Shown here: positions 4,453 through 53,000 of the stretch, piece by piece | Layout: the number at the start of each line of letters is the position of its first letter | How positions within the stretch are numbered: the stretch's first letter is position 1 | DNA from: Opitutaceae bacterium | Lineage (GTDB): Bacteria > Verrucomicrobiota > Verrucomicrobiia > Opitutales > Opitutaceae | DNA length: 64,000 nucleotides | NCBI GenBank assembly: GCA_040255565.1 | Contig: JBDZVH010000003.1 | Location: forward strand, 677,228-741,227 | Direction: 5' to 3' | Notes under the pieces: generated by a model | What the model saw: the letters and a program-made list of their open reading frames with translations, nothing else | Database searches by the model: none | What the model was told of the DNA's origin: nothing | Position numbers and translations under genes: made by a program

Positions 4453-4478
4453 GTTCGCGGATCGCGACACCGCCAAAC

Positions 4479-4640: not shown

Positions 4641-4654
4641 CGCGTATTCGGTGG

Positions 4655-4680
4655 AGCCCGGCGTCCCCGCCGGGCTGTTT
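4655..4680 (+). terminator. GC-rich hairpin between the two family-A repeat copies (possible cheD terminator)
   Basis: AGCCCGGC-gtcccc-GCCGGGCT is a perfect 8-bp stem followed by GTTT. The U-tract is weak. Confidence 0.3.
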
Positions 4681-4723
4681 GTCGCTCCTTCGCCGCCGCC
4701 GCTCACTCCTGCAAGCGACCACC

Positions 4724-4884
4724 GAACTCAGGACGCGTGAGGACACGCGTCCCCACCTCGGAGTGGCGATCGGGACGATCGCCGCTACCTTCCTGATTCT
4801 AAACTACGGAGTGCCCGCGGACTGAGATCGAAGCGGCAAGTCGCATTCTGTGCACTCCGTGGTTCAAAATTCCGGATCCGAAAA
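4724..4884. repeat. structured intergenic repeat, family A (full three-hairpin unit)
   Basis: Module 1 is GGACGCGT-gaggac-ACGCGTCC. Module 2 is GGCGATCG-gga-CGATCGCC. Module 3 is a CACGGAGTG-type long imperfect palindrome ending GGTTCAAAATTCCGGATCCGAAAAG. Confidence 0.85.
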
Positions 4885-4898
4885 GCGCCCGCGCCAGC

Positions 4899-5771
4899 TC
4901 AGAACGACACCGCGCCTTGCGAGAGCTTGTCTTTCAGTCGCGCGCTCGCGCGTTCATGCACGATCGGCATCGTCTCCTGCAACAGCTCGGGCGTGAAACC
5001 CCATTCGAGCAGGAACGATTCGTTGAGCGAATAAAGGAATCCGTCCTCGCCCACGCCGGGACCGAACGACGTCGCCACGTATTTCGCCGCGTGCAGATGC
5101 GCGATCAACGGCAATGCCTCCGCCGGCGCATGCGACGGGCTGAGGTAATGCTCGGCCACCGCGATGAGCACGGGCGGAAAATTCCACGCCCGCAACAAAC
5201 GCGCGCCGACCTGAACGTGGTGATACCCCAGGACCGCCGTTTCCGCTTCGGTCCAGGTTCCACCATGGCTCGCGCAATACGCGCGGATCGCCGGATGAAA
5301 CCCCTCGCAGGCGTGAGCGACGGCCAGCTTGCCCACATCGCACACGAGCCCGGCGGTGTAGGCGGTCTGCGGCGACACCCGCTCGCTCATGCCGGCGAGC
5401 ACCTCGGCCGCGATCGCGGTGCACAGCGCATGACGGCAGAAATCGCCCGCCTCGCCGTGCCCCACGCCGGTCTCCCAACGACTCACCAAGGCCAGTGCCG
5501 CGAGCCGGTAAAGCTCGTGCTGACCGAGCCGCATCACCGCTTCCGCCACGCTTTCCACCGGCGTGCCGGCGGCAAAAAAGGCCGAGTTCGCGAGTCGCAG
5601 CGTCGACGACGCGAGCCCCGGGTCGACTGTGATGATCGCTGCAATGTCGTCCGCGCTGGTGTCTGGCGACTGCAACGCCGAGATCAATCGGGGCAGCAGC
5701 GCCGGGGAACAGGGCAGCCGCAACGCACGTTCGCAGACCTGTTCGAGAGTGGGTGGCTTGGACGGAATCAC
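4899..5771 (-). CDS. HDOD domain signalling protein
   Basis: 290 aa. LPCSPALLPRLISALQSPDTSADDIAAIITVDPGLASSTLRLANSAFF is the HDOD N-terminal pattern. It lies directly downstream of cheA on the same strand. Confidence 0.8.
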   Translation of the reverse strand: MIPSKPPTLEQVCERALRLPCSPALLPRLISALQSPDTSADDIAAIITVDPGLASSTLRLANSAFFAAGTPVESVAEAVMRLGQHELYRLAALALVSRWETGVGHGEAGDFCRHALCTAIAAEVLAGMSERVSPQTAYTAGLVCDVGKLAVAHACEGFHPAIRAYCASHGGTWTEAETAVLGYHHVQVGARLLRAWNFPPVLIAVAEHYLSPSHAPAEALPLIAHLHAAKYVATSFGPGVGEDGFLYSLNESFLLEWGFTPELLQETMPIVHERASARLKDKLSQGAVSF

Positions 5772-5825
5772 GGGAAAGGGTTTGGGTGGAGTCGCCGGCC
5801 GGCGCAGTTCGCGCCAACGCGGGGT

Positions 5826-7973
5826 TCAGGCAGCCTGCAACAACGTGGCCGGATCGAGAATCAGCGCGATGTTGCCGTCGCCCAGGATCGCGCCGCCCGC
5901 GACGCCCGGCAGGCTTTGCATGAACGCGCCGAGGTTTTTGATCACCACTTCCTGCTTGCTGACCATCTCGTCGACGAGGAGCGCCGACACGGTGCCCGAA
6001 TGCTCGACGATCACGACGATGCCGTCCCAGGGATTCTCCGCCTGATGCGGGATGCCGAAGCGACGGTGCAACCGGTGGATCGGCAGGAGGCGACCGCGCA
6101 GATCGAGCACCTCGCCGCGGCCGTGCACCGTGGAGATCGCCTCGCGCGCCGGTCGCAGCGCCCGTTGCACGGACGTGCTCGGGAGAATGAAACGATCTTC
6201 GCCAACGCGCACGACCAGGCCGTCGATGATCGCCATCGTGAGCGGCAGCTTGATCTTGAAAATCGAACCCTGGCCCACCTCGGACGTGATCTCGATCTTG
6301 CCGCGCAGTTTCTCGATGTTGCGCTTCACCACGTCCATGCCGACGCCGCGGCCGGAGACCGCGGTGACCTTCTCGGCGGTCGAAAAACCGGGCGCGAAAA
6401 TCAGGCCGAGAACCTCCTCGCGACTGAGACTCTCCCCTTCGGAAACGATGCCCTTTTCGAGCGCCTTCTTGAAAATCTTCTCGGGATCGATGCCGCGACC
6501 GTCGTCCTGCAGCTCGATGACGATGTTGCTGCCCTGGTGGTAAGCCTTGAGATGAATCGTGCCGGCTTCCGGCTTGCCGGCGGCGAGGCGCGCGGCGGTG
6601 GGTTCAAGACCGTGATCGAGCGCGTTGCGGACCATGTGCACGAGCGGATCGCCGATTTCCTCCACGACGGTCCGGTCGAGTTCGGTGTCGTCGCCACTGG
6701 TCATGAAATGAACCTTCTTGCCGAAATCCCGCGCGAGATCGCGCGCCAGACGCTCCATCTTCTGGAAGGTCTGCTTGATCGGAATCATGCGCAGCGACAT
6801 CGCCGTGTGCTGCAGCTCCTTGGTGATGCGCGACAGCTGCGCGACGTTGCGCTGCAACGGCGACCCGGTGTTTTCGCCCTGTTGGCGCGCCGTCTCGAGC
6901 AGCTGGCTTTGCACGATCACCAGCTCGCCCACGACGTCCATCAACGAATCGAGCTTCTCGGTGTTGACGCGCACGGTGGCGCCGCCCGTGTTTTTCTGCG
7001 TCGAAGGAGCGATCACGCTCGGTGCCGCCTTGGCTGCGGCCGCCGGCGGAGTCGCGTGGTGCGGAGCGGGCGTTTCGAGCGCAGCGGGCACGTGCGTCCC
7101 GTCGGCCTGGGGCGCCGGAGTGGCGACGGGTTTCGGCGCAACGTCCGCGGAAGCGGCGCTCGCCGAGCCGGAGTTTTCCGCGAGGCGTTTCACCGCGCGA
7201 ATGAGATGACCGACCGGAACGATCTGATCGGGCAACTGGCCTTTCTCCAGCGCCAGGGCGACCTGCTGCGTCAGGGCCACGAGCGCGTCGCGGCTGCGCA
7301 GGATCTCCGTGATGATCGCCGCGTTCAGGCGCAGCTTGTGATTGCGCGCGAGATCGAGCAGCGACTCGACTTCGTGCGCGAGCGTGTGCATCGGCACCAG
7401 CCCGAGGAATCCAGCGTTGCCCTTGATCGTATGGAAGGAACGGAAAATGGAATTGAGCGCCTCCGGATTCTCCGGCTCCTGATCGAGCGCGAGCAGCGCC
7501 GCTTCGATCTGCTGGAGATGATCCACGGCCTCGCCGTAGAACTCGCCGAGCAGCTCGCGATTGTCCTCGAGGTGCAGCGTCAGCATCACGTCCTCGGTCG
7601 AGCGATCCTCGGCGGGCGCGGTCGCCGGCTTTGACGCCGCCGGCGCGGCCGCGGCCGAAAAGGACGGGACCGGTATCGACGCCCTCAGGGCGTCGAGTGC
7701 GACGGGCAGCCACTCCACGAGCCGCTGCAGTTCGGCGAGCGTCGGCTCGTCGAACGGTTGCGCGGCATCGAGCCGCTGTTCCAGCGTCGCGTGCATCGCC
7801 GCAATCGGCTGGCTCAGCGCCGGCTCGCCCGCACTCAGATCGCGGAGATCGCTCAGCAGGCTATAGGCGGGCACGAGCCCGTCGTCGCGACCTGGCTGGG
7901 CCAGGATCGATTCGGCGGCGAGACGATTGATGGCGTCGTCCAGGGCTTTCAGGGACTCCGGAGAAATGGGCAT
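5826..7973 (-). CDS. cheA: chemotaxis histidine kinase CheA
   Basis: 715 aa. Hpt motif [15 protein letters not shown], HATPase region ([10 protein letters not shown]...DDGRGID...GRGVGMDVV) and a C-terminal CheW-like domain. Confidence 0.93.
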
Positions 7974-8168
7974 GGAGCGAAGTGGAAACAGAGGCGGTGC
8001 CTTTACTTCGGCTCGCGCCGAAGGTTCTTGAATCGAAACGCCGCCCCCACATTCGGGCCGCTTACTCCGCCTGCATGTACCAAGTACGGTCGCGTGCCGC
8101 TGTTAAAAAATCGCGAAGCACGCTCTCGCTACTCATCGGCGAGAGGTTTTGCGCCGCTGTTTTGCGCG

Positions 8169-9752
8169 ATGAAAACCTGGTCCCTGCGGAAGCTGCTTCT
8201 GGTCGGCTTCTCTGTTCCCACTCTCGCTATTCTGGCGCTCGCCGCCACCTGCTTCGTGAGCCTCGGCACGGTGAGGCACGAGGTCACCCAGATCACGGGA
8301 GAAAGCATACCGGGTTTGACGATCAGCAATCGGGCCCTCGGCGAGGCGACCGCCTACCGCGTCACCACGCTCAAGCACATCATCAGCGACAACGTCGACG
8401 AAATGAAGGCGCTCGACGAACAGTGCATCGCCCTGGGGAAGCAGGTGCTCGCCACGCTCGCCACCTACCAGCAGAAGATCGTCACGCCGGAGGACCGTGC
8501 GTTGTTCGAGCGCGTCGGCCCCGCCTTCGAAACCTACCGCGAAAGCGCCCGGGCGATTCGCGAACTCAGCCTCGCCGGCAAGCCCGCCGAAGCCGAGGTG
8601 CTGATGAAAGGCTCGGGCTCGCAGGCGTTTGCTGCCTACGAACAAACCGTACAAGCACTCGTAAACTACAACATCACCGCCGCCGAGACGTCGCGCACCC
8701 AGGTTGCCGCCACAATGGTGCGCGCCAGCTACGTCACCACGGTCGTCTCGCTGAGCGCGATCGCCCTCTGCGTCCTCGCCGGCTTTCTCATCACCCGCTT
8801 CGTCAACAAAACCCTCCGCCGCGTCAGCGCCGCGCTCGACGACACCTCCGCGCAGGTCACCTCCGCCGCCAGTCAGGTATCCGGCGCGAGCCAGTCGCTG
8901 GCCGAGGGCGCCAGCGAACAGGCCGCCAGCCTCGAGGAAACCGGCGCGTCCATCGAAGAGCTCTCGAGCATGACGAAGCGCAATGCCGACAGCGCGCAGC
9001 AGACGAAGGAGCTCTCGAATCACACCCGCAGCGCCGCCGACACCTGCGCCACCGACATGCAGGAGATGAACCGCGCGATGGACGAAATCAAAGCCTCCTC
9101 CTCCGACATTTCGAAAATCATCAAGACCATCGACGAGATCGCGTTCCAGACCAACATCCTCGCACTCAACGCTGCCGTGGAAGCGGCTCGCGCCGGCGAA
9201 GCGGGCATGGGTTTCGCCGTCGTGGCCGACGAGGTCCGCAGTCTCGCGCAGCGCTCCGCCCAGTCCGCGAAGGAAACCGCCTCCAAGATCGAGGAGGCGA
9301 TCGGCAAGAGCGAGCAAGGCGTGCGCATCTCGGGCAAGGTCGCCGCCTCGCTCGGTGAAATCGTCGAAAAAGCCCGGCGCGTCGACGCCCTCGTCGCCGA
9401 GATCGCGACCGCTTCGCAGGAGCAGAGCCAGGGCATCCAGCAAGTGAATACGACGGTCAGCCAGATGGACAAGGTCACCCAGTCCACCGCGAGCAACGCC
9501 GAGGAAACGGCCGCGGCAGCCGAAGAATTGAGCGCGCAGGCCGTCGCCATGCAGGACGCCGTCGCGGATCTGCGTCGCCTGATTGACGGGGGTTCCTCCC
9601 GTCCGTCCGCGAAACCGGCGCGAGCCGACGCCCCATCCCCCGCGGTCACGCTCACCGCCGCGTCGCCGCGCCGGCCGGTGCTGGTGTCCTCCCATGGCCC
9701 GGCCGACCCGGTCGATCTGAATTTTGCCGACCTCGGCGATCGTCGGAACTGA
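8169..9752 (+). CDS. methyl-accepting chemotaxis protein
   Basis: The start was trimmed from ORF 7758..9752 to the ATG at 8169 ([26 protein letters not shown], an N-terminal TM segment). There is a second TM segment. The signalling domain is highly conserved: [44 protein letters not shown]. Confidence 0.92.
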
Positions 9753-9838
9753 AGCCCGCGTCGCCTGCCGTTTTCCCCTCAACCCGCCATCGAAACAGCC
9801 GATGGAGTCTCCGAAAGCGTCATGCCGGCCGCCGCCGC

Positions 9839-10360
9839 ATGGCGCGCCCGCCAACCATCATGTCCACTATCAACGCTCCCAGCGCCAAGACGAAACTCGC
9901 CGGCAAGTATCTCACCGTCGTGCTCGAGAACGAAGCCTACGGCATAGCCGTGCTCAAGGTGCGCGAAATCATTCGGATGCAAAAGATCACGCCGGTGCCG
10001 CAGATGCCGAGCTTCGTGAAGGGCGTGATCAACCTGCGCGGTCGCGTGATTCCGGTCGTCGATCTTCGCGTGAAGTTCGGCCTCAAGGCCGAATTCGCGG
10101 AGCGCACGTGCATCGTGGTCGTGCAGGTGAAATTGCCCACGGAGCAGGTGGTGCAAATGGGACTGATCGTCGACAGCGTTGAGGAGGTCGTGACGCTCAC
10201 GAACGACGAGATCGAACCCACGCCGGATTTCGGCACCAAGATCGACACGAGCTACCTGCTCGGCATGGCGAAGGTGAAGGGCCAGGTAAAGACGCTGCTC
10301 GACATCGACCGCGTCGTCGCGCCCGAAACCGTCCAGGCGATGACGGAAGTCGCACCCTGA
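9839..10360 (+). CDS. cheW: chemotaxis coupling protein CheW
   Basis: KYLTVVLENEAYGIAVLKVREIIRMQKITPVPQMPSFVKGVINLRGRVIPVVDLRVKFG is a CheW domain. The ATG at 9860 is an alternative start. Confidence 0.88.
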   Translation: MARPPTIMSTINAPSAKTKLAGKYLTVVLENEAYGIAVLKVREIIRMQKITPVPQMPSFVKGVINLRGRVIPVVDLRVKFGLKAEFAERTCIVVVQVKLPTEQVVQMGLIVDSVEEVVTLTNDEIEPTPDFGTKIDTSYLLGMAKVKGQVKTLLDIDRVVAPETVQAMTEVAP

Positions 10361-10390
10361 GGCTTCCGCGCTGCTGCGGTCCCCTTTTCG

Positions 10391-11149
10391 GTGGTGAACT
10401 CGCCTGCCTTCACTTCGTTCGCCAAACGGAGCTACGTGCGCTTTACGTCCGCCGGCACCACGCCGGCGGATCGCACCGCCAACATTTCCGCACGGCTGCG
10501 GGTCCTGCTGGTCGATGACGATCCGATCGCCGGGATGGCGTTGACCGCCTGGCTCCAGGATCTCGGCCATCAAACCGTCTACGCCGCCGGCCCGGTGGAA
10601 GCGGATGCCGCTTTCGAAACCGGCGATTTCGATGTCGTGCTCAGCGACGTGCAGATGCCCGGCAACTTCCGTCTCGAATGGATCGAGCGGCGACTCCAGG
10701 CCGAATGTCCTCCCCCGGTCCTGTTGATGACCGGCAGTCCCCAGCTGGAGAGCGCGATGCGCGCCGCCAATCTTCCCATTGCCGGCTACCTCCTCAAACC
10801 GATCGATTTCAAGAAAACCGCGCCCCTCCTCGAACGCCTTGGTCAAGAACGCCGTCAACGGCGGGCGCTGTTTTCGCTCGCACAGGAAGTCGCTCGTCTG
10901 ACCGGCCAACGCCCCGCCACCAGCGGCGATGCCGCCGCCGACGAACTGCGCGAACTGGCCGGCCGGCTCGCGGCCGAAGCCAGTCGTCCACCGCGGGAAC
11001 GCGGGGGAGAAACGGGCGGCCAGCCGTGGCTCGACGCGATCGTCGAAACCATCGCGGTGCTCGAAAAGACGAAACACAGCTTTCGCTCGAAGGAACTCGG
11101 CGAATTGCGCAAGCGGCTGCTGCAATTGGTGCCCGGCGCGGCCGTCTGA
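10391..11149 (+). CDS. response regulator: receiver domain plus helical C-terminal region of unknown function
   Basis: 252 aa, GTG start in the ORF track. Receiver: LRVLLVDDDPIAGMA...VVLSDVQMPG...LLKPIDF. I do not recognise the C-terminal roughly 110 aa. Confidence 0.75.
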   Translation: MVNSPAFTSFAKRSYVRFTSAGTTPADRTANISARLRVLLVDDDPIAGMALTAWLQDLGHQTVYAAGPVEADAAFETGDFDVVLSDVQMPGNFRLEWIERRLQAECPPPVLLMTGSPQLESAMRAANLPIAGYLLKPIDFKKTAPLLERLGQERRQRRALFSLAQEVARLTGQRPATSGDAAADELRELAGRLAAEASRPPRERGGETGGQPWLDAIVETIAVLEKTKHSFRSKELGELRKRLLQLVPGAAV

Positions 11150-11185
11150 AAACCCCGTTCCTCGCAACCGCCGCGCGCCAGCGAC

Positions 11186-11212
11186 TAAAGTCCGGCCGCT
11201 CGCGGTCGATAT
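11186..11212 (+). promoter_or_regulatory. sigma28 (FliA)-type promoter candidate
   Basis: TAAA-N15-GTCGATAT against the consensus TAAA-N15-GCCGATAA. It sits about 110 nt upstream of the receiver-protein and MCP gene pair. Confidence 0.45.
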
Positions 11213-11322
11213 AATACGTGTTGCGGTGCGCACAAGCGCAGCCGCCTTTTTCGGGCAGGTGATCGACCTGCAAGGCAAAGGAGCAACGTTCGCCCTCCTC
11301 CGAGGGCTCGTCCACCTTTGCC

Positions 11323-11805
11323 ATGTCGCTCCGTCCTTCCCACGACTCCTTCGTCTTTACCGCCTCCACTGATGCGCGGGACTTCGTCATCGCGTCCAAC
11401 GCGAAGGTGACGCAGCGTTCCGATTTCATCCCGGCGCACGTCCTGATCGTCGACGAAGACCCATTGAGCTGCGCCGGTCTCGGGCGGCTCGTCGCCCAGT
11501 CCGGCCACTCGATCGCCCTCGCCTGCAGCCTGGCGGTCGCCGATGCCATGCGGCTGTCGCTGACCTTCGATCTGGTCCTCGTCGACCTGAGCCGCCCCTC
11601 CCCCGACCTCGACCGCTGGGTGGCCTGCCTGGTCGCCGATCCCCGTGGCGCGACGATCGCGCTCGTCGGCAACGAACCCGCGCGGGCCGCAGCCGATGGC
11701 ATCGATTTTTCGGATACATTTCACCTCGCCAAGCCGGTCGATCCCGCCGCCCTGCGCGCGCTGCTCGCCCGCTTTGGCGCCGAGCAGGACCTCCCTTCCA
11801 TCTGA
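11323..11805 (+). CDS. single-domain receiver (REC) protein
   Basis: 160 aa. [14 protein letters not shown]...[12 protein letters not shown]...HLAKPVD is a receiver pattern. The third codon position is GC-rich. Confidence 0.65.
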
Positions 11806-11813
11806 CTCTCACC

Positions 11814-13373
11814 ATGAAAAACTGGACCATCCGCAAGCGGATCATCACCGGCTTTGCCGTCATTCTCGTGCTCGTCTGCATCCAGGCGATCGCGACCCGG
11901 CTGCTGCTGCGGCCTGTCGTCGCAAGAAGCGACGAGATCGAAAACAAGCTGCTCCCAAGCCTGACCTTGATCAGCGAGGTGAAGAGCAACATCGGCGAAA
12001 TTCAAATTCGTGTGGTGCGCACGCTCCTCGCCGAGGATCCGGTCGAGCTGAAGCGGATCATCGACGAGACCGAGGCGATGCGCGCCCGCAATCTCGAGCT
12101 GATCGAACTCTATGCCAAGACCATCACCGACGAGGAGGATCGCGGCTTTTATACGTCGTTGAAGGAGAACCTCACGCACTACGCCGCGGCCCGCCAGCAG
12201 CTCTTTTCCCTGCTGCTCTCCGGCCAGCGCGCCGAAGCCAATGCCTGGAACCTCTCCGCCGTCCGGCCGGCCTACGAAGCATATCAGGCTGACGCGAGCC
12301 GGCTGCTCACGCACAACATCGCCACCGCGACCGCCGCGGTCGACGCAAGCGGCAAGGACATTCGCAAGACCGACCTTATCACGGTCGTGAGCGCCACCGC
12401 GGCGATCGGCCTCGGCATCGTTTTCGCCACCGCGATTGTCATCGGACTCAGCCGCCTGCTCGGCCGCGTGGCTTCCGCCTTGGAGGACAGCGCAGCCCAG
12501 GTCGCCGCCGCCGCCGGTCAGGTTTCCTCCGCCAGCCAGACACTCGCGTCCGGTTCGAGCGAACAAGCCGCCAGCCTCGAGGAAACCAGCGCGTCGCTCG
12601 AGGAGATGTCCTCGATGGCAAAGCGCAACGCCGCCAGCGCCGCCGAAGCGAAGGACCTCTCCAGCGAAACCCGCGGCGCCGCGGACGCCGGTCAGACCGA
12701 CATGCAGGAAATGTCGCAGGCCGTGGCTGCGATCAAACAATCGTCCGACGGGATCGCCAAGATCGTGAAGACCATCGACGAGATCGCGTTTCAAACGAAC
12801 ATCCTCGCGCTCAATGCCGCGGTGGAGGCCGCGCGCGCGGGCGAAGCGGGGATGGGTTTCGCTGTCGTCGCCGAAGAGGTGCGCAATCTCGCGCACCGCT
12901 CGGCCCAGTCCGCCAAGGAGACCGCGGTCATGATCGAGGAATCGGTGCGACGCAGCGAACACGGGGTGGCGATCAGCGAGAAAGTCGCGCAATCGCTCAC
13001 CGGCATCGTCGCCCGTGCGCACAAGATGGACGGCCTCGTCGCCGAAATCGCGCAAGCGTCGGGCGAGCAGACACAGGGCATCGGCCAGGTGAACTCCGCC
13101 GTCGCGCAGATGGACCGCGTCACGCAATCCAATGCAGGCACCGCGGAGGAGACCGCCGCGGCCGCGGAGGAATTGAGCGCGCAATCGCACGCCCTGCGCG
13201 AGCACGTCGCCGAATTGACCCGGCTCGCTGGTGTGCGAGGAAGCGTCAGGGAGTTGAAAACCTCGGCGCCCGTGCCGCCGGCAAAGCCGGGAAAAAAGTC
13301 GAAGCGCGAGATGACCGCCGTCACGCTCCGGACGCCGTCAGAGGCACATCCCGACCTCGCACCGGTTGCCTGA
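11814..13373 (+). CDS. methyl-accepting chemotaxis protein
   Basis: 519 aa. N-terminal TM segment and a four-helix-bundle-like sensor. The signalling domain is nearly identical to the MCP at 8169 ([44 protein letters not shown]). Confidence 0.92.
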
Positions 13374-13391: not shown

Positions 13392-13895
13392 GAACTCAGG
13401 ACGCGTGGGGACACGCGTCCCTACCTCGGAATGGCGATCGGAACGATCGCCGCTACCTTTCTGATTTCTAGACCACGGAGTGCACAGAATGCACGGAGTG
13501 CCGTATTCCGTGCATTCTGTGCATTCTGTGGTTCAACATTCCCGATCCGAAAAAGCGCGAAGCAGAACTCAGGACGCGTGGGGACACGCGTCCTTACCTC
13601 GGAATGGCGATCGGGACGATCGCCGCTACCTTTCTGATTTCTAGACCACGGAGTGCACAGAATGCACGGAGTGCCGTATTCCGTGCATTCTGTGCATTCT
13701 GTGGTTCAACATTCCCGATCCGAAAAAGCGCGAAGCAGAACTCAGGACGCGTGGGGACACGCGTCCCTACCTCGGAATGGGGATCGGGACGATCGCCGCT
13801 ACCTTTCTGATTTCTAGACCACGGAGTGAGATCGAAGGCGGAAGTCCGTATTCCGTGCACTCCGTGCATTCTGTGGTTCCAGATTCCGGGTCGGT
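13392..13895. repeat. tandem array (about 2.9 copies, 173-bp period) of the family-A structured repeat
   Basis: Unit starts (GAACTCAGGACGCGTGGGGACACGCGTCC) are at 13392, 13565 and 13738. The first two units are almost identical and the third diverges in the long hairpin. This generates the duplicated ORF-track entries 13431..13637 and 13604..13810. Confidence 0.9.
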
Positions 13896-13939: not shown

Positions 13940-13981
13940 AAAAAAGAATCGGGCGGGTGGCCACACAACAACCACCCGCCC
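13940..13981 (-). terminator. Rho-independent terminator of the REC-REC-STAS gene
   Basis: On the minus strand a perfect 10-bp stem (GGGCGGGTGG / CCACCCGCCC) with an 11-nt loop is followed by GATTCTTTTTT. It lies 40 nt downstream of the stop at 14021. Confidence 0.7.
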
Positions 13982-14020
13982 GCTGCTTCTTCGTTAACCC
14001 CCAGAGGGGAAATCCGGCCT

Positions 14021-15169
14021 TTACGCGGGCGCGAGCGCGGGCGCCTTGCCCAGGTTCGCCTTCGCATCCTCGAGCGAATCGTAGAACGTCCAGCCGCGCG
14101 TGTCCTCGAAGCCTTTGCACTCGGTGACGATCTGCGGATTGGCGACCAGCGCGAACTGCATCGCCAGCTCACGACAGGTCTGCATCGCCTGGAACAGCAG
14201 CTTGATCACGCCCATGTGCAGCGAGCGCAGCTGGTGGATGTCGATGACGACCTTGTTGTGCCCGGCGTCGACCGCCTCGGCGAACTTCGGTTTCAGATAC
14301 GTCGCCGCCTCGGCGATCACCGCGGGAGAGCAGTTCTCCGGCAGGCGCATGATCAACGCGTCGCCCTCGATCGCGTAGTAGCGTTGCGAGGTGTCGAGGT
14401 TCATCGCCTTGGCCATCTTCGTCTCGAGTTCGCCGAGATCGATCGGCTTCGTGACGATGGCGCTGAAACCCACGGTCTGCGCCTGCTGCTGCTGCGCGAC
14501 TTCGGTTTTCACCACGAGCGCGAAAACCGGCGTGTATTTGGTTTTCACATTCGTGCGGATGAGGCGGAAAAGCGTGAACGCCGATTCCTCGGGCAGCGAA
14601 AGGCTGACGAGCATGAGGTCCGGCGGTGTGCGCGAACAGAAATCGATCGCCTCGCCCTGCGTGGCGACGCCATGGATCTTCCACGGCGTGTGCTTCAGGC
14701 CATCCTGGATCTGCTGGATGATCGCCGGCTTGTCCTCGACGATGAGGATGTCGGCCGGATCGAAAATGGATTTCGCCTTCGCGGGCGTCTCGGAGAGCGG
14801 CTTCAGGTCGATGATGCGGCCGGCCTTCTCGATCAGCACGTCTTCCTTGAACGGCTTCACGAGATAATCGCGCACACCGATCTTGGCAATCTTGAGCACG
14901 TTGTCGCGGCCGCCTTCAGCCGTGAGCATCATGACGGGGATGCCCTTGAGGGCAGGATCCGCCTTGAGCTTCGTGAGCATCTCGACGCCGTCCATCACGG
15001 GCATCGTCACGTCGAGGAGGATCAGGTCGGGGTTCTCCTTGGCTGCGATCGCCAGGCCCTCGACGCCGTTGCCGGCTTCGAGAATCTCGCAGTCGTAGGT
15101 TTTGAAGGCTTTTCGAACGATGATGCGAACGGTCTTCGAGTCGTCGACGGTGAGAATCTTGTAACGCAT
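14021..15169 (-). CDS. CheY-like receiver - second receiver - STAS (anti-sigma-antagonist fold) fusion protein
   Basis: 382 aa. REC1 is strongly CheY-like: KILTVDDSKTVR...LILLDVTMPVMDG...MLTAEG...YLVKPF. REC2: ILIVEDKPAII...LMLVSLSLPEES...IVTKPID. The C-terminal roughly 110 aa is SpoIIAA/RsbV-like STAS: ALIMRLPENCSP...KVVIDIHQLRSLHMGVIKLL...FALVANPQIVTECKGFED. Confidence 0.8.
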   Translation of the reverse strand: MRYKILTVDDSKTVRIIVRKAFKTYDCEILEAGNGVEGLAIAAKENPDLILLDVTMPVMDGVEMLTKLKADPALKGIPVMMLTAEGGRDNVLKIAKIGVRDYLVKPFKEDVLIEKAGRIIDLKPLSETPAKAKSIFDPADILIVEDKPAIIQQIQDGLKHTPWKIHGVATQGEAIDFCSRTPPDLMLVSLSLPEESAFTLFRLIRTNVKTKYTPVFALVVKTEVAQQQQAQTVGFSAIVTKPIDLGELETKMAKAMNLDTSQRYYAIEGDALIMRLPENCSPAVIAEAATYLKPKFAEAVDAGHNKVVIDIHQLRSLHMGVIKLLFQAMQTCRELAMQFALVANPQIVTECKGFEDTRGWTFYDSLEDAKANLGKAPALAPA

Positions 15170-15178
15170 GATGTGTGA

Positions 15179-15739
15179 TTAGGAAAGGGGCTCTTCGTCC
15201 TGGTCCTGCTTCAGCAGGATGTCCGCGATGATGCGGTGGCCGGAACAATCGAAATGGTAGATGTAGCGGGCGACGGAGCTGATCGGCTCGATCGTGAAAT
15301 TGCTGCCGTGCAGGATCGAGGGGATCGTGAGCTTGCACGGATAGCCGGCATCGCAGAGGCCGTTCTTGAAGCTGCCGACGGTCATGTTCGTCAGTTCGCC
15401 GATGGCGTCGTTCAGCACCTCGTCGCCGGCCTCGCTGAGTTCCTCATCGGTCATGCCCAGCAGCTGGCAGGTGCAGTGGCGGGCGAACGCGAGATCGAGA
15501 TAAAGATAGATCAAGCCGTTGGCCTCGCCGATGAAGCCGACGGTGCCCACGACGTGCGGGCGCGGATTGTCGGCCAGCGGCGACTGCGCCGGCCAGGCTT
15601 TCTCGAGATCCGTGGCGCCGCCCGCCGGCGGGGGCACGAGCGCGGGCTCACGGCTGAGCATGGTTTTGAAGACATCGCCAACGGCGCGGGCAATGTTGTC
15701 ACGAATCAAGGTGGCGGTGATTTGCTCGGCAGCAGGCAT
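15179..15739 (-). CDS. cheX: CheX/CheC-family CheY-P phosphatase
   Basis: 186 aa. The active-site motif D-x3-E-x2-N is present (DAIGELTN), within a GFIGEANGLIYLYLD context. Confidence 0.75.
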   Translation of the reverse strand: MPAAEQITATLIRDNIARAVGDVFKTMLSREPALVPPPAGGATDLEKAWPAQSPLADNPRPHVVGTVGFIGEANGLIYLYLDLAFARHCTCQLLGMTDEELSEAGDEVLNDAIGELTNMTVGSFKNGLCDAGYPCKLTIPSILHGSNFTIEPISSVARYIYHFDCSGHRIIADILLKQDQDEEPLS

Positions 15740-15770: not shown

Positions 15771-15798
15771 CTATCGGCGCGTTTCCCGCGCGGATTTA
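15771..15798 (-). promoter_or_regulatory. sigma28-type promoter candidate for the cheX / REC-REC-STAS operon
   Basis: The minus strand reads TAAA-N16-GCCGATAG. The spacer is 1 nt longer than the consensus. It sits about 30 nt upstream of the cheX start. Confidence 0.35.
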
Positions 15799-15889: not shown

Positions 15890-17374
15890 TCAGCCGTCGA
15901 TCGAGGCCAGGTCGGCGTCGATCGCATCGCCCGCCTCGCGATATTCCTGCAGCTTGTTGCGCAGCGTGCGAATGCTGATGCCCAGTTCGGCCGCCGCTTG
16001 CGTGCGGTTGCCGTTGGTCTGCCGCAACGCCGCGCGAATCGCCTGTTTCTCCAGTTCGTCGAGCCGCAGCACGAGGCCGTTGTTCCCGACCACGGACGGC
16101 GTTGCCGCATCCGGGGAGACCGGTGCGGGCGCGGCAGGCTCGGGCGGGAACAACTCTGGCGATTCGGGCGGCGGAGCGGTTTCGATCGCCGGCTCCGCGA
16201 AACTCAAATCGCCGGGTAGGCCGAGTGCGCCCGCCGATACGGGTCGTCCGGACTCCGACAGGATCACCGCGCGCTCCACCGTGTTCTGGAGCTCGCGGAC
16301 ATTGCCCGGCCAGCGATAGGCTTGGAGCGCCGCGCGCGCGGCCTCGGAAAATCCGGTCACCTTCACGCCGTGCTTGCGCACGAAACGCCGCAGGAAGTGG
16401 TCCGCGAGAAAGAGAATATCCTCGGGCCGCTCGCGCAGGGCCGGCACGTGCACGGGGAACACGTTCAGCCGGTAATAAAGGTCCTGGCGGAAATCGCCCT
16501 TCTCGACGTGCTTCAACAAGTCGCGGTTCGACGTCGCGATGATGCGCACGTTGACCTTGATCGTGCGGCTGCCGCCCACGCGTTCGAACTCCCGCTCCTG
16601 CAGCACGCGCAAAAGCTTCGCCTGGAGGTTCGCGGGAATCTCGCTCACTTCGTCCAGCAGCAGCGTGCCCTGATGCGCCAGCTCGAAGCGGCCCTCGCGG
16701 CGCTCCGTCGCGCCGGTGAACGCCCCGCGTTCGTGGCCGAAAAACTCACTCTCGATCAGGTTTTCGGATACGGCCGCGCAATTGACCTTGATGAACGGGT
16801 GCGCCCGCCGCGGGCTGCGGCGGTAGAATTCGCGCGCGACCATTTCCTTGCCCGTGCCGCTCTCGCCGGTGACGAGCACCGTCGCATCCGTGGGCGCCAC
16901 GCGCTCGATCAACTGTCGCAACCGGATCATCGCCGGACTGCGCCCCACCAGCGTGCCATCCTCGTCGCCGGGATTGTCGCTCAGGAGGCGGTTGACCTTG
17001 AGCAGCTGGCGATACGACTGGGCCTTCTTGAGGATGACATCGATCTGGCTCGGCGAAAATGGCTTCAGGACGTAGTCGAACGCCCCCGCGCGCATGCAGG
17101 CGACCGCGGACTCGATCGTGCCGTAGCCCGTCACCATCACGACGAGCGGACGCTCGGGCAGCGCGGCGATCTGCTCCAGAAACTTCTGGCCGTCGCCGTC
17201 CGGCAGCCGGATGTCGAGCATCATCAAGTCGAACTGCTCGCGCTGCAGGATCGCCGCCGCCTCGGCCAGGTTGTTGGCGGAGGTGATCGGAAGTTTATGC
17301 CGCTGGAAAATACTTTGGAGCAGGTTTCGAACGACGAGTTCGTCCTCAACAATCAGTATCTTCTCAAAGGACAT
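15890..17374 (-). CDS. sigma54-dependent response regulator (NtrC/FleR/FlbD class enhancer-binding protein)
   Basis: 494 aa. Receiver ([11 protein letters not shown]...[12 protein letters not shown]), AAA+ domain ([20 protein letters not shown] loop, [13 protein letters not shown]) and a C-terminal Fis-type HTH ([20 protein letters not shown]). Confidence 0.9.
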
Positions 17375-18031: not shown

Positions 18032-18424
18032 ATGCGCCTTCTCTCCTTCCTCACCGACATCGAACGGGCGGTCCGTCTCGAAGCCAACGCCGGCGAAGGC
18101 GCCATCTGGAACAGCTCCCGGATCATCAATTTCCGCACCGGCCTCGCGCGCCTGACCTTGAATCTGCGCGAACGCGACAGCGGCTTCCCCGAGGGTTCGG
18201 TGATCGTCCAGTATTTCGGCTTGGCCGATGGCTCGTTCTGCCTGAAGGCCAGCCTGGCCTGGCAGGGCACCGACGCCGCCCAGACGCTCTCCGTCTACGA
18301 CACGCCGCTGCTGAATTGGAAACTGGAAGCTTCCCGCATCGCCGCGGCGTGGCTCGCCGGTCCGCCGGCGGCCGCTAGTATCGGCGCCGAAGCCGAACCG
18401 GAACGCGTCGCCGTCGCGAGCTGA
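18032..18424 (+). CDS. hypothetical protein (no recognisable domain); monocistronic unit with a sigma28-like promoter and its own terminator
   Basis: 130-aa ORF with GC-rich third codon positions. It is flanked by the promoter candidate at 17962 and a canonical terminator at 18445. Confidence 0.65.
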   Translation: MRLLSFLTDIERAVRLEANAGEGAIWNSSRIINFRTGLARLTLNLRERDSGFPEGSVIVQYFGLADGSFCLKASLAWQGTDAAQTLSVYDTPLLNWKLEASRIAAAWLAGPPAAASIGAEAEPERVAVAS

Positions 18425-19378: not shown

Positions 19379-19663
19379 TTACGATTCGTCTTCGCTCAGA
19401 TCGGGAGAGGTCAGGATCGCCGCACCGACGTGCTTGAGCACCTCGCGCGACGGATAATTCGGATCGGAAGCGAGGGCCCGGGCCCGCTCCACGACTTCGG
19501 CGCGGACTTCCGGCTGGCGCTGCAGCTCGGAACGGAGGAACGCGGCACTGTCGGTCGAAAGCTGATCGGGCCGCGGTTTCAGCGGTCGGGGGGCGGCATG
19601 CGCGCTGGCGGCGAGGGCCTCGGCGTGCGGAGTCCTGTCGGTCGGATTCGTCGAGTTGATCAT
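19379..19663 (-). CDS. anti-sigma-28 factor FlgM-like protein
   Basis: 94 aa. The N-terminus looks disordered. The C-terminal EVRAEVVERARALASDPNYPSREVLKHVGAAIL resembles the FlgM sigma28-binding helices. A consensus sigma28 promoter lies upstream. Confidence 0.55.
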   Translation of the reverse strand: MINSTNPTDRTPHAEALAASAHAAPRPLKPRPDQLSTDSAAFLRSELQRQPEVRAEVVERARALASDPNYPSREVLKHVGAAILTSPDLSEDES

Positions 19664-19734: not shown

Positions 19735-19761
19735 TTATCGGCTTGATGCCCGAATACTTTA
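19735..19761 (-). promoter_or_regulatory. sigma28 (FliA) promoter, full consensus
   Basis: The minus strand reads TAAA-gtattcgggcatcaa-GCCGATAA (TAAA-N15-GCCGATAA). It sits 72 nt upstream of the flgM-like start. Confidence 0.7.
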
Positions 19762-19849: not shown

Positions 19850-20590
19850 TCAGCGCGTCTCCGCCGCGGGCGGCGGCACATACACGGGCGGCAGCGTCGC
19901 GAACGTCGCACCCGCGACGTAGCTCGCGAATTGCGAGGGCGACTGGAGCACGCTGCGCGTCAGATCGGCCGGCACCCCGCCCCGCTCCGCGTCGAGGAAA
20001 CGACGACGCGCGCTGTTGGCCACGGCGGGATTATCGGCGGAAAACACGTTGTCAAAGCTCCACAGGATGCGGACCGGTTCGCCGGTCGTCGCGAGCTTCG
20101 CGCGCACGCCGAGCAGCAGCGGACGGAAGGGTTTGTAGGCGGTGACGTCGACAAACATGACGCCGTCGGCCGCGAAATCGCGCCGGAGCCGGCCGGCAAA
20201 ATCGTGCGGGAGCGATGCGGTGGAGAGCAATTCCTCAGCGCGGTAGCGCTGGAGGAGTTCCTCGCGGGTCAGCGGGACCACTTCGAAACGGTTCTGTTTC
20301 TGCAGCTCGGCGACAAACACCGGATCGAGCGCGGCGGCACTCTCCGCCCCGGCGATCGCACCGCCGGCGACCGGCAGCAGCACGACCCGGCGGAGACCGG
20401 CCGGGAGCTGCGCCTCGCCGACGACATTGGTCGGTGTGAAAAACGGACCGATTCGCGCGCTGTCGCCTGGCGAAGGATGCATGCAGCCGGACCAGGCGGG
20501 AAGCGAGAGGAGCATTGCACCGGCGAAAGCGCGCGCCGCGGTTTTCGCGAACGCGGTGCGGGTCGGACGGGAGGGACGCAGCCGGCTCAT
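19850..20590 (-). CDS. putative lipoprotein translationally coupled to fliD
   Basis: 246 aa. Signal peptide with a lipobox-like LPAWSGC. The start overlaps the fliD stop (ATGA at 20587..20590). Confidence 0.7.
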   Translation of the reverse strand: MSRLRPSRPTRTAFAKTAARAFAGAMLLSLPAWSGCMHPSPGDSARIGPFFTPTNVVGEAQLPAGLRRVVLLPVAGGAIAGAESAAALDPVFVAELQKQNRFEVVPLTREELLQRYRAEELLSTASLPHDFAGRLRRDFAADGVMFVDVTAYKPFRPLLLGVRAKLATTGEPVRILWSFDNVFSADNPAVANSARRRFLDAERGGVPADLTRSVLQSPSQFASYVAGATFATLPPVYVPPPAAETR

Positions 20591-22429: not shown

Positions 22430-22493
22430 CAGGCCCCGTCGAGACAAATGTCGCGACCGGCGAGATCGAGAGCCGACCCCACTCGATCCGAAT

Positions 22494-22524
22494 GCGACAC
22501 GGACGTCGCGCTTAGCATCAAGGA
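22494..22524 (+). promoter_or_regulatory. CsrA-type 5'UTR element: GGA-loop hairpin plus AAGGA at the ribosome-binding site
   Basis: GCGAC-acGGAc-GTCGC hairpin at 22494..22509, then atcAAGGAag 8 nt before the ATG. The same two-site layout recurs upstream of flagellin 2. Confidence 0.45.
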
Positions 22525-22531
22525 AGATATC

Positions 22532-23350
22532 ATGCCAGTTGTCATCAACACCAACTTCGCGGCCACCGTGGCTGCGAACAACCTGACCGCTTCCAACGCC
22601 TCGCTGCAGCGCAGCCTCAACCGGCTTTCGAGCGGTTCGAAAATCGTCAACCCCGCCGACGACGCCGGTGGTCTCGCCGTGTCCATGAAACTGTCCGCCG
22701 CCGCCGTCCGCCAGGGCGCGGTGGGCACGAACATCGGCAATGCCACCTCGTATCTGCAAACGCAGGACGGCGTGCTGAAGGTCGCCGGCAAGGTCCTCGA
22801 TCGCATGGGCGAGCTGAAGACGCTCTACCTCGATCCGACCAAGAACAGCGACGACCTCGCGAACTACGACGCGGAGTTCAAGGCGCTCCAGGACCAGCTC
22901 TCGGCCCTGACCCAGGAAAAGTTCAACGGCGTCACGCTCTTCGGCTCCGGCGAGCTCTCGGTCTCCGTCACGGAAGACGGTGGCTCCAGCTCGGCGGTCA
23001 CGATCAAGGGTCGCGACCTCTCGAGCTCCACCTCGGGCGTCGGCGCGCTGACTTCGAACACCGTGACCTCGCTTTCCGGCATCCAGCTGAGCGACATCAC
23101 GGATGCGATCCAGCACGTCGCAACGTTCCGCGCCGAGAACGGCGCCGAACAGAGCCGCCTCGGCTTCGCCGCCGAATTGCTCACGGTCAACAAGGCCAAT
23201 CTCGAGGCCGCCTCGAGCCGCATTGTCGACGTGGATGTTGCCCAGGAATCGACCCAGCTCGCCCGCTGGAACACCCTCGTGCAGGCCGGCACGGCGATGC
23301 TCTCGCAGGCCAATCAGAGTGCGCAGACCGCACTCAAGCTGCTCCAGTAA
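22532..23350 (+). CDS. fliC: flagellin (short, 272 aa)
   Basis: The start was trimmed to the ATG at 22532 (MPVVINTNFAATVAANNL...). Conserved flagellin N-terminus (LQRSLNRLSSGSKIVNPADDAGGLAVS) and C-terminus (NGAEQSRLGF...DVDVAQESTQLARWNTLVQAGTAMLSQANQSAQTALKLLQ). The central segment is Ser/Thr-rich. Confidence 0.93.
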   Translation: MPVVINTNFAATVAANNLTASNASLQRSLNRLSSGSKIVNPADDAGGLAVSMKLSAAAVRQGAVGTNIGNATSYLQTQDGVLKVAGKVLDRMGELKTLYLDPTKNSDDLANYDAEFKALQDQLSALTQEKFNGVTLFGSGELSVSVTEDGGSSSAVTIKGRDLSSSTSGVGALTSNTVTSLSGIQLSDITDAIQHVATFRAENGAEQSRLGFAAELLTVNKANLEAASSRIVDVDVAQESTQLARWNTLVQAGTAMLSQANQSAQTALKLLQ

Positions 23351-27360: not shown

Positions 27361-27361
27361 G

Positions 27362-28513: not shown

Positions 28514-28521
28514 CCTGGTGA

Positions 28522-32160: not shown

Positions 32161-32178
32161 GGCAAAATGGAATTCGAG

Positions 32179-51074: not shown

Positions 51075-53000
51075 ATGTCTGTCGTGATGGGCGATTCCGT
51101 CGCCGGCGTCGCGCCTTCGCCGCCGGCAGAGAACTGGCTCGGGCCGTGGGAAACCAGCGCCGACCCGGTGTATTGCCATGACTTGGACGGCCGCCTGCTC
51201 GCCGCCAACCTGTCGTTCGCCCGAAAATTTGGCCGCGTGCCGGCGTCGTTGCCCGGGGTCACCGTGGCGGAGTTTCTTCACCCCGATGACGTCGCGGGCA
51301 TGCACGCCGCGCTCGCCGAGGTGGTGCGTCCGCCGCACCGCGTCACCTGCGAAAACCGCTGGCTCACGCCCCAGGGTGTCCGCTGGTTCGCCTGGGAGAA
51401 GGTGGCCCAACTCGATCCGTCCGGCGCCGTCCTCGCCATCCGGGCCGTCGGCCGCGACATCACCCGCCAGCGTCTCGCCGAGGAACAATTCTACCGTCTG
51501 TCCCGCGCTGTCGAGCAGTCGCCCGTCTCGATCGTGATCACCGATCTCGACGGCCGGCCGCAATACGTGAATCCCAAGTTCACCGAGGTCAGCGGCCGCA
51601 CGCTCGAAGACATCCTCGATCGGCAGCTCGAAGTGCTGCGCGACGGCCATCCCGACGAGGCGTCGTATCAAAAATTCTGGGAAACCGTGCGCGGCGGCGG
51701 CGAGTGGCGCGGCGAGCTTTGCACGCGCCGGCCTGACGGCGCCACCGTTTGGGAATCCGTCAAGGTCTCGCCCATGCGCAATCCCGCCGGCGAGATCACC
51801 AACCTGCTCTGCCTGCGGGAGGACATCACCAGCCGCAAGGCCCTCGAGAGCGAGCTCCGCCAGGCGCACAAGATGGAGAGCCTCGGCACCCTCGCCGGCG
51901 GCATCGCGCACGATTTCAACAACCTGCTCGCGATCATCCACGGCTACTCCGAATTCTGCCTTCAGGGCGGCGCCGACCAGGCGATCCTGCAGAAGAGCCT
52001 GCAGGAGATCCACCGCGCCGCGCAGCGCGCGAGCGGGCTCGTGAAACAAATCCTCACATTCAGCCGGAAGGCGGAGATCCGCTACGCGCCCGTCGATCTC
52101 AACCAGCTCGCGCGCGACCTGATCGCGCTCATGGCGGAAACGTTTCCCCGCACGGTGACGTTCCAGCTGAATCTCGCCGAAAAGCTCCCGCCCCTCCTCG
52201 CCGACCAGACGCAGGTTCAGCAGATCGTGCTTAACCTGTGCGTCAACGCCCGCGACGCTATGCCGCAGGGCGGTGCGATCGCCGTGAGCACGAGCGTCAG
52301 GCTCGGGGCCGAGTTGCAGTCGCGGCACCACGCGGCCGAGCCGGCCCGGCGCTACGCATGTCTCGACGTCACGGATACGGGCACGGGCATGACGCCCGAG
52401 GTGCGCGCGCGGATCTTCGAGCCATTCTTCACGACGAAGGCCGCCCACAAGGGCACCGGCCTGGGCCTCGCCGTCGTCTACGGCATCGCCACCAGCCATC
52501 AGGGTTTCATCGACGTCGACAGCACGCCGGGCGTGGGCAGCACCTTTCACGTTTATCTGCCGCTCGCGACGGAGACGTCCGCGACCGCTGCCACCGGCGG
52601 GTCCGCGGAGTTTCCCGCCGGTTCGGAATCGCTCCTGGTCGTCGACGACGAGACCTCGCTGCGCGCGCTGCTCTCCGCCGCCCTCACCCGCAAGGGTTAT
52701 CGGGTCACCACCGCGGCCACCGGCCTGGAGGCGATCGAGACGATCGGCGACACGAACCAAAAACTCGATGCCGTGCTGCTCGACCTCAACATGCCGGGCA
52801 CCAACGGCGTGCAGGTGTTGAAAGTCCTGCGCGCGTGCCGACCGGATCTGCCGGTGCTCGTCATCAGCGGCCACATCACGCCGGATGTCCGCACGGAGTT
52901 CCAGCAGTTGAACCAGCGGGAGTTTTTGCAAAAACCCTACCGGCTCGACGAGGTCGGCCGGCGTCTGCGCGCGCTGCTGGATCAGACGGCGAAAAAATAA
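51075..53000 (+). CDS. PAS-PAS hybrid sensor histidine kinase with C-terminal receiver
   Basis: 641 aa. Two PAS-like segments, HisKA ([13 protein letters not shown]), HATPase ([10 protein letters not shown]...DTGTGM...[11 protein letters not shown]) and a receiver ([11 protein letters not shown]...[12 protein letters not shown]...LQKPY). Confidence 0.9.

Follow-up and report, generated by a model that had tools for sequence, protein, structure and literature searches.

A putative CheX-partnered REC-pseudo-REC-STAS regulator associated with flagellar and chemotaxis genes in Opitutales

Introduction

What does a CheY-type receiver control when it is joined directly to a STAS domain? The question is raised by a two-gene operon on the minus strand of a 64,000-nucleotide stretch of DNA from an Opitutaceae bacterium (contig JBDZVH010000003.1 of assembly GCA_040255565.1), the whole of which is referred to as the window in this study. 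The first gene of the operon encodes a CheX-type phosphatase and the second encodes a regulator that consists of a CheY-like receiver (REC1), a second receiver-like domain (REC') and a C-terminal STAS domain. In classical STAS partner switches, a serine kinase and a PP2C phosphatase stand between the sensor and the STAS protein. Each of the domains found here is already known, and so are systems in which a receiver controls a STAS protein. The direct REC-pseudo-REC-STAS fusion, its CheX partner, its sigma28 control and the use of REC'-STAS as a portable cassette appear to be undescribed. No paper in the searched literature matches terms for the REC-pseudo-REC-STAS architecture, and a bare listing in regulator censuses is possible.

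Our tentative reading, which we hold with somewhat less than even confidence, is that the operon is a late-flagellar (sigma28-class) unit which encodes the CheY-equivalent of a flagellum-associated chemosensory system together with a dedicated CheX, and that phosphorylation gates the STAS domain. The evidence for this reading is given below, starting from the operon itself, and four competing explanations are then weighed against it.

Operon structure and transcription signals

The order of elements on the minus strand is a sigma28-type promoter, the CheX gene, the regulator gene and a terminator. The CheX gene (15179..15739; 186 aa; Pfam CheX) and the regulator gene (14021..15169; 382 aa; Pfam and a full-length AlphaFold model) are separated by an intergenic gap of only 9 bp. 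Both open reading frames (ORFs) have a coding-like codon-position GC, with a G+C content at third codon positions of 0.84-0.87 in a window of 65% G+C.

The promoter motif, TAAA-N16-GCCGATAG, is found at 15798..15771 on the minus strand, 32 nt before the CheX start codon. What we take to be the sigma28 (FliA) consensus is a TAAA element followed after about 15 nt by GCCGATAA and placed in front of a late flagellar or che gene. Three copies of TAAA-N14-17-GCCGATA were found in the window against 0.01 expected by chance, all of them just 5' of gene starts, namely those of CheX, of the p94-fliS operon (72 nt before p94) and of a flagellin ORF (19 nt). Of 84 related loci, 53 have the strict motif 5' of CheX, among them the two loci of the distant P0175 lineage, and a further 14 have a relaxed form, with TTAA in 13 of these. 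Across 1.37 Mb of loci, 53 of the 91 strict matches fall in the short windows upstream of CheX. The motif is thus conserved at this position and is probably read by sigma28, as the earlier note on this DNA, made from the sequence alone, had proposed. The same note had also described a clean terminator, and this is borne out by a G+C-rich hairpin at 13982..13950 (minus strand) with a stem of 15 bp, 10 of them G-C pairs, followed by a T-run and located 39 nt past the regulator stop codon; the terminator as a whole was placed at 13940..13982.

A 173-bp unit is repeated in 2.9 tandem copies (94% matches) at 13392-13887, between the second chemoreceptor gene of the neighbouring che cluster and the operon terminator. 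The repeat gives rise to repeated spurious ORFs on both strands; a mobile or repetitive extragenic palindromic (REP)-like element and a regulatory array are candidates for its nature.

Domain organization of the regulator

Two Response_reg stretches were found in the regulator by Pfam (E 9.6e-42), and the AlphaFold model of the full-length protein has a predicted local distance difference test score (pLDDT) of 93.2. REC1 (14813..15163, minus strand; residues ~3-119) aligns with Escherichia coli CheY at 38% identity over 119 residues with a single gap. The CheY residues D12, D13, D57, T87 and A88 correspond to D9, D10, D53, T83 and A84 of the regulator, and E89, Y106, K109 and K119 correspond to E85, Y102, K105 and K115; the phosphorylation-site columns are conserved across the family. 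The NCBIfam CheY model gives 90.7 bits for the whole regulator and 68.4 bits for residues 1-105 alone. Among the other receivers of the window, the one encoded after cheW reaches 30.2 bits while the other two give nothing or lie outside the best 25 matches. REC1 is therefore the most CheY-like receiver in the window, in agreement with the earlier note.

The second domain, REC' (14405..14758, minus strand; residues ~138-255), was recognised by alignment with PleD and by column counts over 32 family members, which are also the basis of the residue and Pfam counts given below. At its acceptor position, Ser189, where an acceptor Asp would close beta-3, serine is found in 26 members, aspartate in three, asparagine in two and glycine in one, while K241 (31/32) and P242 (32/32) are retained. 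The family alignment shows a canonical REC1, an 'ILVSLSLP' consensus at the dead acceptor site of REC' and an invariant K-P in 'TKPID'. As Ser189 replaces the acceptor aspartate, REC' is best described as a pseudo-receiver like the adaptor domain of PleD. PleD is also the best solved-structure match of the regulator, both by sequence (phmmer, E 3.5e-22), where residues 3-253 are aligned and receiver and adaptor are both covered, and by Foldseek. No GGDEF match was found in the regulator by Pfam; its C-terminal domain is a STAS domain. The fusion of a CheY-like receiver to a second receiver and a C-terminal STAS domain thus stands as first described, except that the second receiver is a pseudo-receiver.

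The STAS domain (14045..14386, minus strand; residues ~262-375) was assigned from Foldseek, from a profile search of the PDB and from Pfam matches within the family. The regulator itself matches Pfam STAS (PF01740) at 21.9 bits (E 1.5e-4), just below the gathering cutoff of 22.6, and 11 of the 32 family members match it at E up to 0.01, the best at 9.5e-8. The seven best matches in the PDB search with the family profile are all STAS proteins (3t6o, RsbS, SpoIIAA; E 0.003-0.02). The C-terminal domain modelled alone has a pLDDT of 91.1, and the best 50 Foldseek matches of this model are exclusively STAS domains, including those of TM1081, RsbS, SpoIIAA, YtvA and SLC26 proteins, with TM-scores (normalised to the target) of 0.64-0.79 for single-domain STAS targets. 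The predicted structure hence confirms the STAS fold (beta-beta-alpha-beta-alpha-beta-alpha-alpha) that had been suggested from the sequence.

In the HMMER alignment, D57-S58-S59-G60 of SpoIIAA stands opposite H318-M319-G320-V321 of the regulator, so that the phosphorylatable Ser58, which in such antagonists opens helix alpha-2, is replaced by M319, just as the earlier hand alignment had placed it. The column is variable in the family (L7, V5, M4, E4, P3, T2, A2, S2 and others), with serine or threonine in only 4 of 32 members, and by this alignment the phosphorylatable serine is absent from the STAS domain. The window genes scanned with Pfam include no RsbW-type kinase, no PP2C phosphatase and no FliA, and no RsbW/SpoIIAB-type kinase or PP2C gene was recognised beside the distant family members. 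A classical partner switch that works by serine phosphorylation was therefore rejected, since a conserved serine is lacking and neither RsbW nor PP2C is encoded nearby. Control by the receivers, which the earlier note had put in place of a partner-switch kinase, is a reasonable reading in view of the lost serine and of the gene content of the window.

The CheX phosphatase

The product of the first gene matches Pfam CheX at 75.8 bits (E 2.9e-21), well above the cutoff of 27, and CheX and CheC-like proteins are its closest solved-structure matches in the PDB. Its active site carries the D/S-x3-E-x2-N motif as D111-x3-E115-x2-N118, with P140 as the downstream proline. These four residues are invariant among the CheX partners of distant family members, which have an overall identity of only 24-30%. 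The pairing of the two genes is likewise constant. CheX lies directly upstream of the regulator in all 79 of the 79 Opitutales loci counted, and it occupies the same place in the distant members P0128, P0156, P0175 and P0141. A family variant in which a cyclic nucleotide monophosphate (cNMP)-binding domain precedes REC'-STAS has no phospho-acceptor and no adjoining CheX. The phosphatase with an intact motif that had been placed 9 bp upstream of the regulator gene is thus well supported, and REC1-P is its probable substrate.

The regulator family and its REC'-STAS cassette

Residues 130-382 of the regulator were searched against 1.84 billion cluster representatives, giving 644 matches at an E threshold of 1e-10, of which 52 also pass 1e-30. 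Roughly 30 of the matches are full-length proteins of 366-415 aa, with 22-55% identity. By its homologs, the window itself comes from an Opitutus species (Verrucomicrobiota). Where an organism name is available, all relatives belong to Opitutales (Nibricoccus sp. IMCC34717 and metagenome-assembled genomes (MAGs) of Opitutaceae or Opitutales) with the exception of one MAG labelled Methylomirabilota. In public records they are named either 'response regulator' or, at JGI, PleD-type 'cell cycle response regulator'.

The domain that precedes REC'-STAS is not always a lone receiver. A cNMP-binding domain takes this place in 5 of the 32 family members, a REC-HPt arrangement is found in P0138, P0147 and P0293, and REC-HD_5, where HD_5 is an HD-GYP-related Pfam family, is found in P0149. 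In P0168, a VWA domain follows the STAS domain of a REC-REC'-STAS protein. One of the REC-HPt variants (P0138) sits after a hybrid histidine kinase gene, and the REC-HD_5 variant sits after a REC-HDOD gene. Judged from these architectures, REC'-STAS is a constant, portable cassette behind swapped inputs. It is conserved as much as REC1 and carries family-specific motifs of its own. Since it is as conserved as REC1 and is kept behind other inputs, it should have a target of its own.

Three minor observations were made on the family. The cassette of L093 lies in an operon with a REC-HDOD gene, and P0124 shows two STAS-like matches in tandem. In L089 (593-1730) and L090 (411-1548), REC-REC' and STAS are in different frames with the break at an identical junction, in assemblies from different samples; this split may reflect an assembly error common to both, a pseudogene or a truly split or frameshifted gene. 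Stand-alone STAS homologs of 107-131 aa were considered as a route to the partner and rejected, as those of L089, L090 and L091 are frameshift fragments.

Gene neighbourhood and the proposed link to CheA

On one flank of the operon, the window contains genes for CheR, CheB, a REC-HD_5 protein, CheD, an HDOD protein, CheA, a methyl-accepting chemotaxis protein (MCP), CheW, two poor receivers and a second MCP. The other flank contains the genes for a sigma54 activator, a small receiver, a FlgN/FliT-like protein, FliS, p94, a 246-aa protein, FliD and two flagellins. In related loci that reach beyond cheR, the next genes are flgB, flgC, fliE and fliF. The che cluster is hence embedded in flagellar operons, with flgB-flgC-fliE-fliF at one end and late flagellar genes at the opposite end. 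No ordinary single-domain CheY was found in the che cluster, either in the window or in the flanks of related loci. Two neighbours are of particular interest for the regulator. The CheA gene (5826..7973, minus strand) encodes HPt, dimerisation, HATPase and CheW domains (Pfam) behind a 139-aa N-terminal extension, and its product is the candidate kinase of REC1. The sigma54 activator gene (15890..17374, minus strand; REC-AAA+-HTH by Pfam, NtrC/AtoC/FlbD-like by NCBIfam) lies just upstream of CheX.

Linkage was tallied over 80 Opitutales-type MAG loci, obtained with a five-sequence REC'-STAS alignment, and only loci with enough flank were counted; the contexts of distant members come from single look-ups. 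Besides the invariable CheX, the sigma54 activator was found upstream on the same strand in 61 of 75 loci, FliS or FliD within 10 kb upstream in 39 of 56, and che genes within 10 kb downstream in 18 of 47. Of these linkages, plain proximity of the che cluster is thus the weakest. The most constant neighbour after CheX is the sigma54 activator, which also adjoins the pair in the distant loci L081, L082 and L087.

Che genes nevertheless adjoin the pair in several loci where the gene order has changed. L047 has the activator, CheX, the regulator, CheA and HDOD on one strand, with a gap of 83 bp before CheA. The order is regulator, CheA, HDOD in L063 and CheA, HDOD, CheX, regulator in L080, while L035 shows CheR, CheB, REC-HD_5, CheD, CheX, regulator and activator. 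These independent rearrangements keep the pair beside CheA-HDOD or beside other che genes. Among the distant members, in which the regulator is 38-46% identical to the window protein, the order is activator, CheX, regulator in P0128 and P0141 and CheX, regulator in P0156. Divergently adjacent in the locus of P0175 (L082) is a CheA from the subfamily of the window CheA; the two share 54% identity in the kinase core and stay collinear across the N-terminal extension. This locus further contains CheX, the regulator, the activator, a homolog of the 246-aa protein and a REC-HD_5 gene. In L091, an MCP gene lies directly downstream of the regulator. The large ORFs that closely follow the regulator in L082 and L091 were compared and set aside, as they are unrelated to each other, one being an MCP and the other having no Pfam match. 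Overall, the link to CheA made by the earlier note gains support from the gene neighbourhood, namely from the rearranged loci and from the divergent CheA of L082.

The 139-aa extension of the window CheA is ~36% identical to, and collinear with, that of the L082 CheA (217-1566), and this shared extension marks a distinct CheA subfamily. Within the che cluster (577-13373), a REC-HD_5 gene (~2519-3757) and an HDOD gene co-oriented with CheA (4899-5771) were observed, which suggests that outputs related to cyclic di-GMP are wired to the window CheA. Of the two poor receivers, one (10391-11149; 252 aa) is encoded after cheW and the other (11323-11805; 160 aa) is very weak.

The FlgM-like candidate p94

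The p94 gene (19379..19663, minus strand; 94 aa) lies upstream of fliS with a sigma28-type motif at 19761..19736, and the earlier note had pointed to it as a FlgM-like gene 4 kb from the operon. Its size, the motif and its position before fliS would fit FlgM. The identity is weak, as the window protein has no match in Pfam or NCBIfam. Pfam FlgM (PF04316) is weakly matched by 4 of 23 p94 orthologs, with a best E of 0.013, and no other family recurs. A profile search of the PDB and an hhalign comparison with E. coli FlgM gave nothing. In a profile search of 5.8 billion proteins, only unnamed or 'hypothetical' matches were returned, all from Opitutales where the organism is named. Only 9 of 42 loci conserve the sigma28 motif in front of p94. 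The FlgM assignment is therefore not established.

Proposed mechanism and alternative explanations

The regulator is most likely the CheY-equivalent of the system because the flagellum-embedded che cluster has no ordinary CheY. The cheX-then-cheY order, the CheY signature residues, the sigma28-type control and the tie to one CheA subfamily lead to the same reading. In the mechanism that we propose, the neighbouring CheA would phosphorylate REC1 at Asp53, a transfer that is expected from the receiver residues and the gene context. The phospho-signal would then re-pack REC1 against REC', by analogy with the REC-REC' stem of PleD, and this might switch the STAS domain between states that are competent and incompetent for partner binding, through either its availability or its oligomeric state. 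CheX would rapidly strip the phosphate and so reset the switch. In this way, aspartate phosphorylation of a fused receiver might stand in for the serine kinase and phosphatase layer of STAS partner switches. The PleD-like relay is drawn from analogy, and the binding of a partner by STAS is a prediction. As for the target, the flagellar and chemosensory machinery, that is the switch complex or the CheA array, is ranked slightly ahead because of the fast-reset phosphatase and the lack of another CheY in the cluster; next in rank are an anti-sigma28 factor and the sigma54 activator encoded beside the pair.

Several observations weigh against the proposal. Of the 47 Opitutales loci whose downstream flank spans 8 kb or more, 29 have no che gene within 10 kb, and neither che nor flagellar genes are seen in the distant L081 and L087 as far as their sequence extends. 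Members such as P0138, which are fed by a hybrid kinase, indicate that the cassette is not tied to CheA. As the region examined comprises the window and the flanks of related loci, an ordinary CheY elsewhere in the genome is possible. Most of the solved STAS structures closest to the domain belong to anti-sigma antagonists, which does not favour a target in the motor or the array. Finally, the global TM-score of the full-length model against PleD is only 0.30, so the PleD-like relay is an analogy and not a structural equivalence, and a PleD-like quaternary arrangement is not claimable from the model.

The explanation favoured by the earlier note is an anti-anti-sigma activity, in which phosphorylation of REC1 gates the binding of p94 by STAS, thereby freeing sigma28 and letting chemosensory input tune the late flagellar genes. 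As the operon itself has a sigma28 promoter, this would create a feedback loop. A precedent is available in Pseudomonas, where the STAS protein HsbA in its non-phosphorylated form binds FlgM and frees FliA (PMC6482189), and the STAS domain studied here appears to be permanently non-phosphorylatable. That SpoIIAA and RsbS are among the closest solved structures, that late flagellar genes lie upstream in the majority of Opitutales loci (39/56), and that p94 is a small protein encoded just upstream of fliS behind its own sigma28-type motif, with weak FlgM matches in four orthologs, are all consistent with it. We nevertheless consider it rather unlikely. The FlgM identity of p94 is weak in every search made, its sigma28 motif is conserved in few loci, and the most constant neighbour after CheX is the sigma54 activator and not a FlgM-like gene. 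The obligatory CheX implies a fast turnover that suits behaviour better than the control of transcription, the cassette is also found behind cNMP, HPt and HD_5 inputs and in non-flagellar contexts, and in a che cluster without another CheY the regulator may simply be the CheY of the system. A broader form of the same idea, a partner switch free of serine kinases in which the STAS domain gated by CheA-P binds p94 and frees sigma28 under a positive feedback damped by CheX, while REC'-STAS lets varied inputs reach a common flagellar target, is a shade less likely again. Quite as unlikely as the simple anti-anti-sigma activity is a docking or phosphate-sink role, in which the STAS domain binds CheA while REC1 and CheX drain phosphate and so tune CheB, the REC-HD_5 protein and the post-CheW receiver. 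It is modelled on CheS, a STAS-only protein of che clusters which binds CheA and alters how it handles two CheYs (PMC12654446), and STAS-only genes are listed in several chemosensory gene clusters (PMC9239204). The tight, rearrangement-resistant CheA-HDOD linkage and the obligatory CheX partner would suit such a role, which is at odds with the many loci that lack che genes nearby and with the cNMP-REC'-STAS variant; a protein with neither phospho-acceptor nor CheX points to a function of the cassette beyond the draining of phosphate.

Two further explanations seem improbable to us. The regulator might be an ordinary motor-binding CheY whose REC1-P binds FliM/FliN, with REC'-STAS serving only for stability, dimerisation or localisation. 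REC1 keeps the counterparts of CheY T87, A88, E89, Y106, K109 and K119, the cheX-then-cheY order is that of Borrelia, sigma28 control is typical of che genes, and no other CheY was found in the cluster. Such a minor part for REC'-STAS is difficult to reconcile with its conservation, which is no lower than that of REC1 and includes family-specific motifs, and with its retention where REC1 is replaced by a cNMP-binding domain or supplemented with HPt or HD_5, and in non-flagellar contexts. The last explanation, to which we give the least weight, is that the pair modulates the adjacent sigma54 activator, either by contact of STAS with the activator or with sigma54 or by competition for a kinase, so that a product made under sigma28 feeds back on middle genes. 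The constancy of this neighbour argues for it: the activator accompanies the pair in 61 of 75 loci and in the distant L081, L082 and L087, two of which show no flagellar or che genes, and the adjacency survives the rearrangement in L035. The CheY-like VemR, encoded between fleQ and rpoN2 in the fleQ-vemR-rpoN2 operon of Xanthomonas, binds RpoN2 and controls a flagellar rod gene (PMC6637908), and the REC-HPt-REC'-STAS variants suggest phosphorelays that end on another receiver. Against this, a STAS domain acting on a sigma54 activator has no known precedent, the CheX operon has a sigma28 promoter of its own past the activator gene, and sigma54-type promoters are not enriched in the window (5 matches against 4.6 expected). 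The activator, which scores as generic NtrC/AtoC/FlbD-like, may be merely a co-located flagellar regulator.

Comparison with known signalling systems

The closest architectural relative of the regulator is PleD of Caulobacter (REC-adaptor pseudo-REC-GGDEF), in which a phospho-accepting receiver is also followed by an adaptor without the acceptor aspartate and then by an output domain. The regulator differs in having STAS and not a diguanylate cyclase as its output, in its pairing with CheX and in its sigma28 promoter, and its predicted overall arrangement does not superpose on that of PleD. The STAS fold is shared with the antagonists SpoIIAA, RsbV, RsbS and HsbA. In HsbR/HsbA, RsbY/RsbV and RsfR/RsfB, a receiver also ultimately controls a STAS protein; these systems use a separate REC-PP2C protein, with or without a kinase domain, by which phosphate is added to or removed from a conserved STAS serine, whereas here the receiver is fused and the serine is absent. 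The RsbR paralogs and YtvA have a variable N-terminal sensor and a constant C-terminal STAS domain. The family resembles them in keeping a STAS C-terminus behind interchangeable inputs, and YtvA and stressosome STAS proteins are among the best fold matches. It is unlike them in that no RsbS or RsbT was seen nearby, the constant unit includes the pseudo-receiver, and the inputs are REC, REC-HPt, REC-HD_5 and cNMP-binding.

Similarities to chemotaxis and flagellar systems were also observed. CheS of alpha-proteobacteria, compared by description only, is likewise a STAS protein whose gene belongs to a chemotaxis cluster and which acts together with CheA and CheY-type receivers; it is a free-standing single domain in a system without CheX, whereas the STAS domain of the regulator is fused behind REC-REC'. 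In the cheA2-cheW3-cheX-cheY3 cluster of Borrelia, cheX immediately precedes cheY3 (PMC10703414). The operon described here has the same arrangement of a CheX gene directly upstream of the CheY-type regulator expected as its substrate, except that this regulator bears the two extra domains REC' and STAS. VemR is comparable in that it is a CheY-like receiver, has its gene next to that of a flagellar sigma54 activator and acts by protein-protein contact, although it is a single domain with neither STAS nor a CheX partner.

A receiver-STAS fusion that is paired with CheX would shorten and speed the coupling of two-component or chemosensory signals to a STAS-mediated interaction. In Opitutales, the regulator appears to be the sole CheY-like output of the flagellum-embedded che cluster and may thus reveal how the output of chemotaxis works in the poorly studied Verrucomicrobiota. 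With REC, REC-HPt, REC-HD_5 and cNMP-binding inputs in front of it, REC'-STAS represents an unstudied signalling output module.

Other features of the window

Four HDOD proteins are encoded in the window, one in the che cluster (4899-5771) and the others at 48949-49941, 49973-50953 and 55563-56489. A hybrid kinase is encoded at 51075..53000. Two conserved genes of the flagellar flank have no Pfam match. The first, p246 (19850-20590; 246 aa), lies between fliD and p94 and has a 35%-identical homolog in L082, while the second (18032-18424; 130 aa) is found on the opposite strand near the sigma54 activator.

Directly after the flagellins, the run of genes at 24694-33081 encodes SIS and HAD hydrolase proteins, a FkbM-type methyltransferase with TPR, a 1212-aa TPR/glycosyltransferase/capsule-synthesis protein and a family-2 glycosyltransferase, and resembles a flagellin glycosylation island. 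Flagellin_N begins at residue 33 of the first flagellin ORF (22448-23350) compared to residue 5 of the second, and the true start of the first flagellin is probably located about 28 codons downstream of the listed start.

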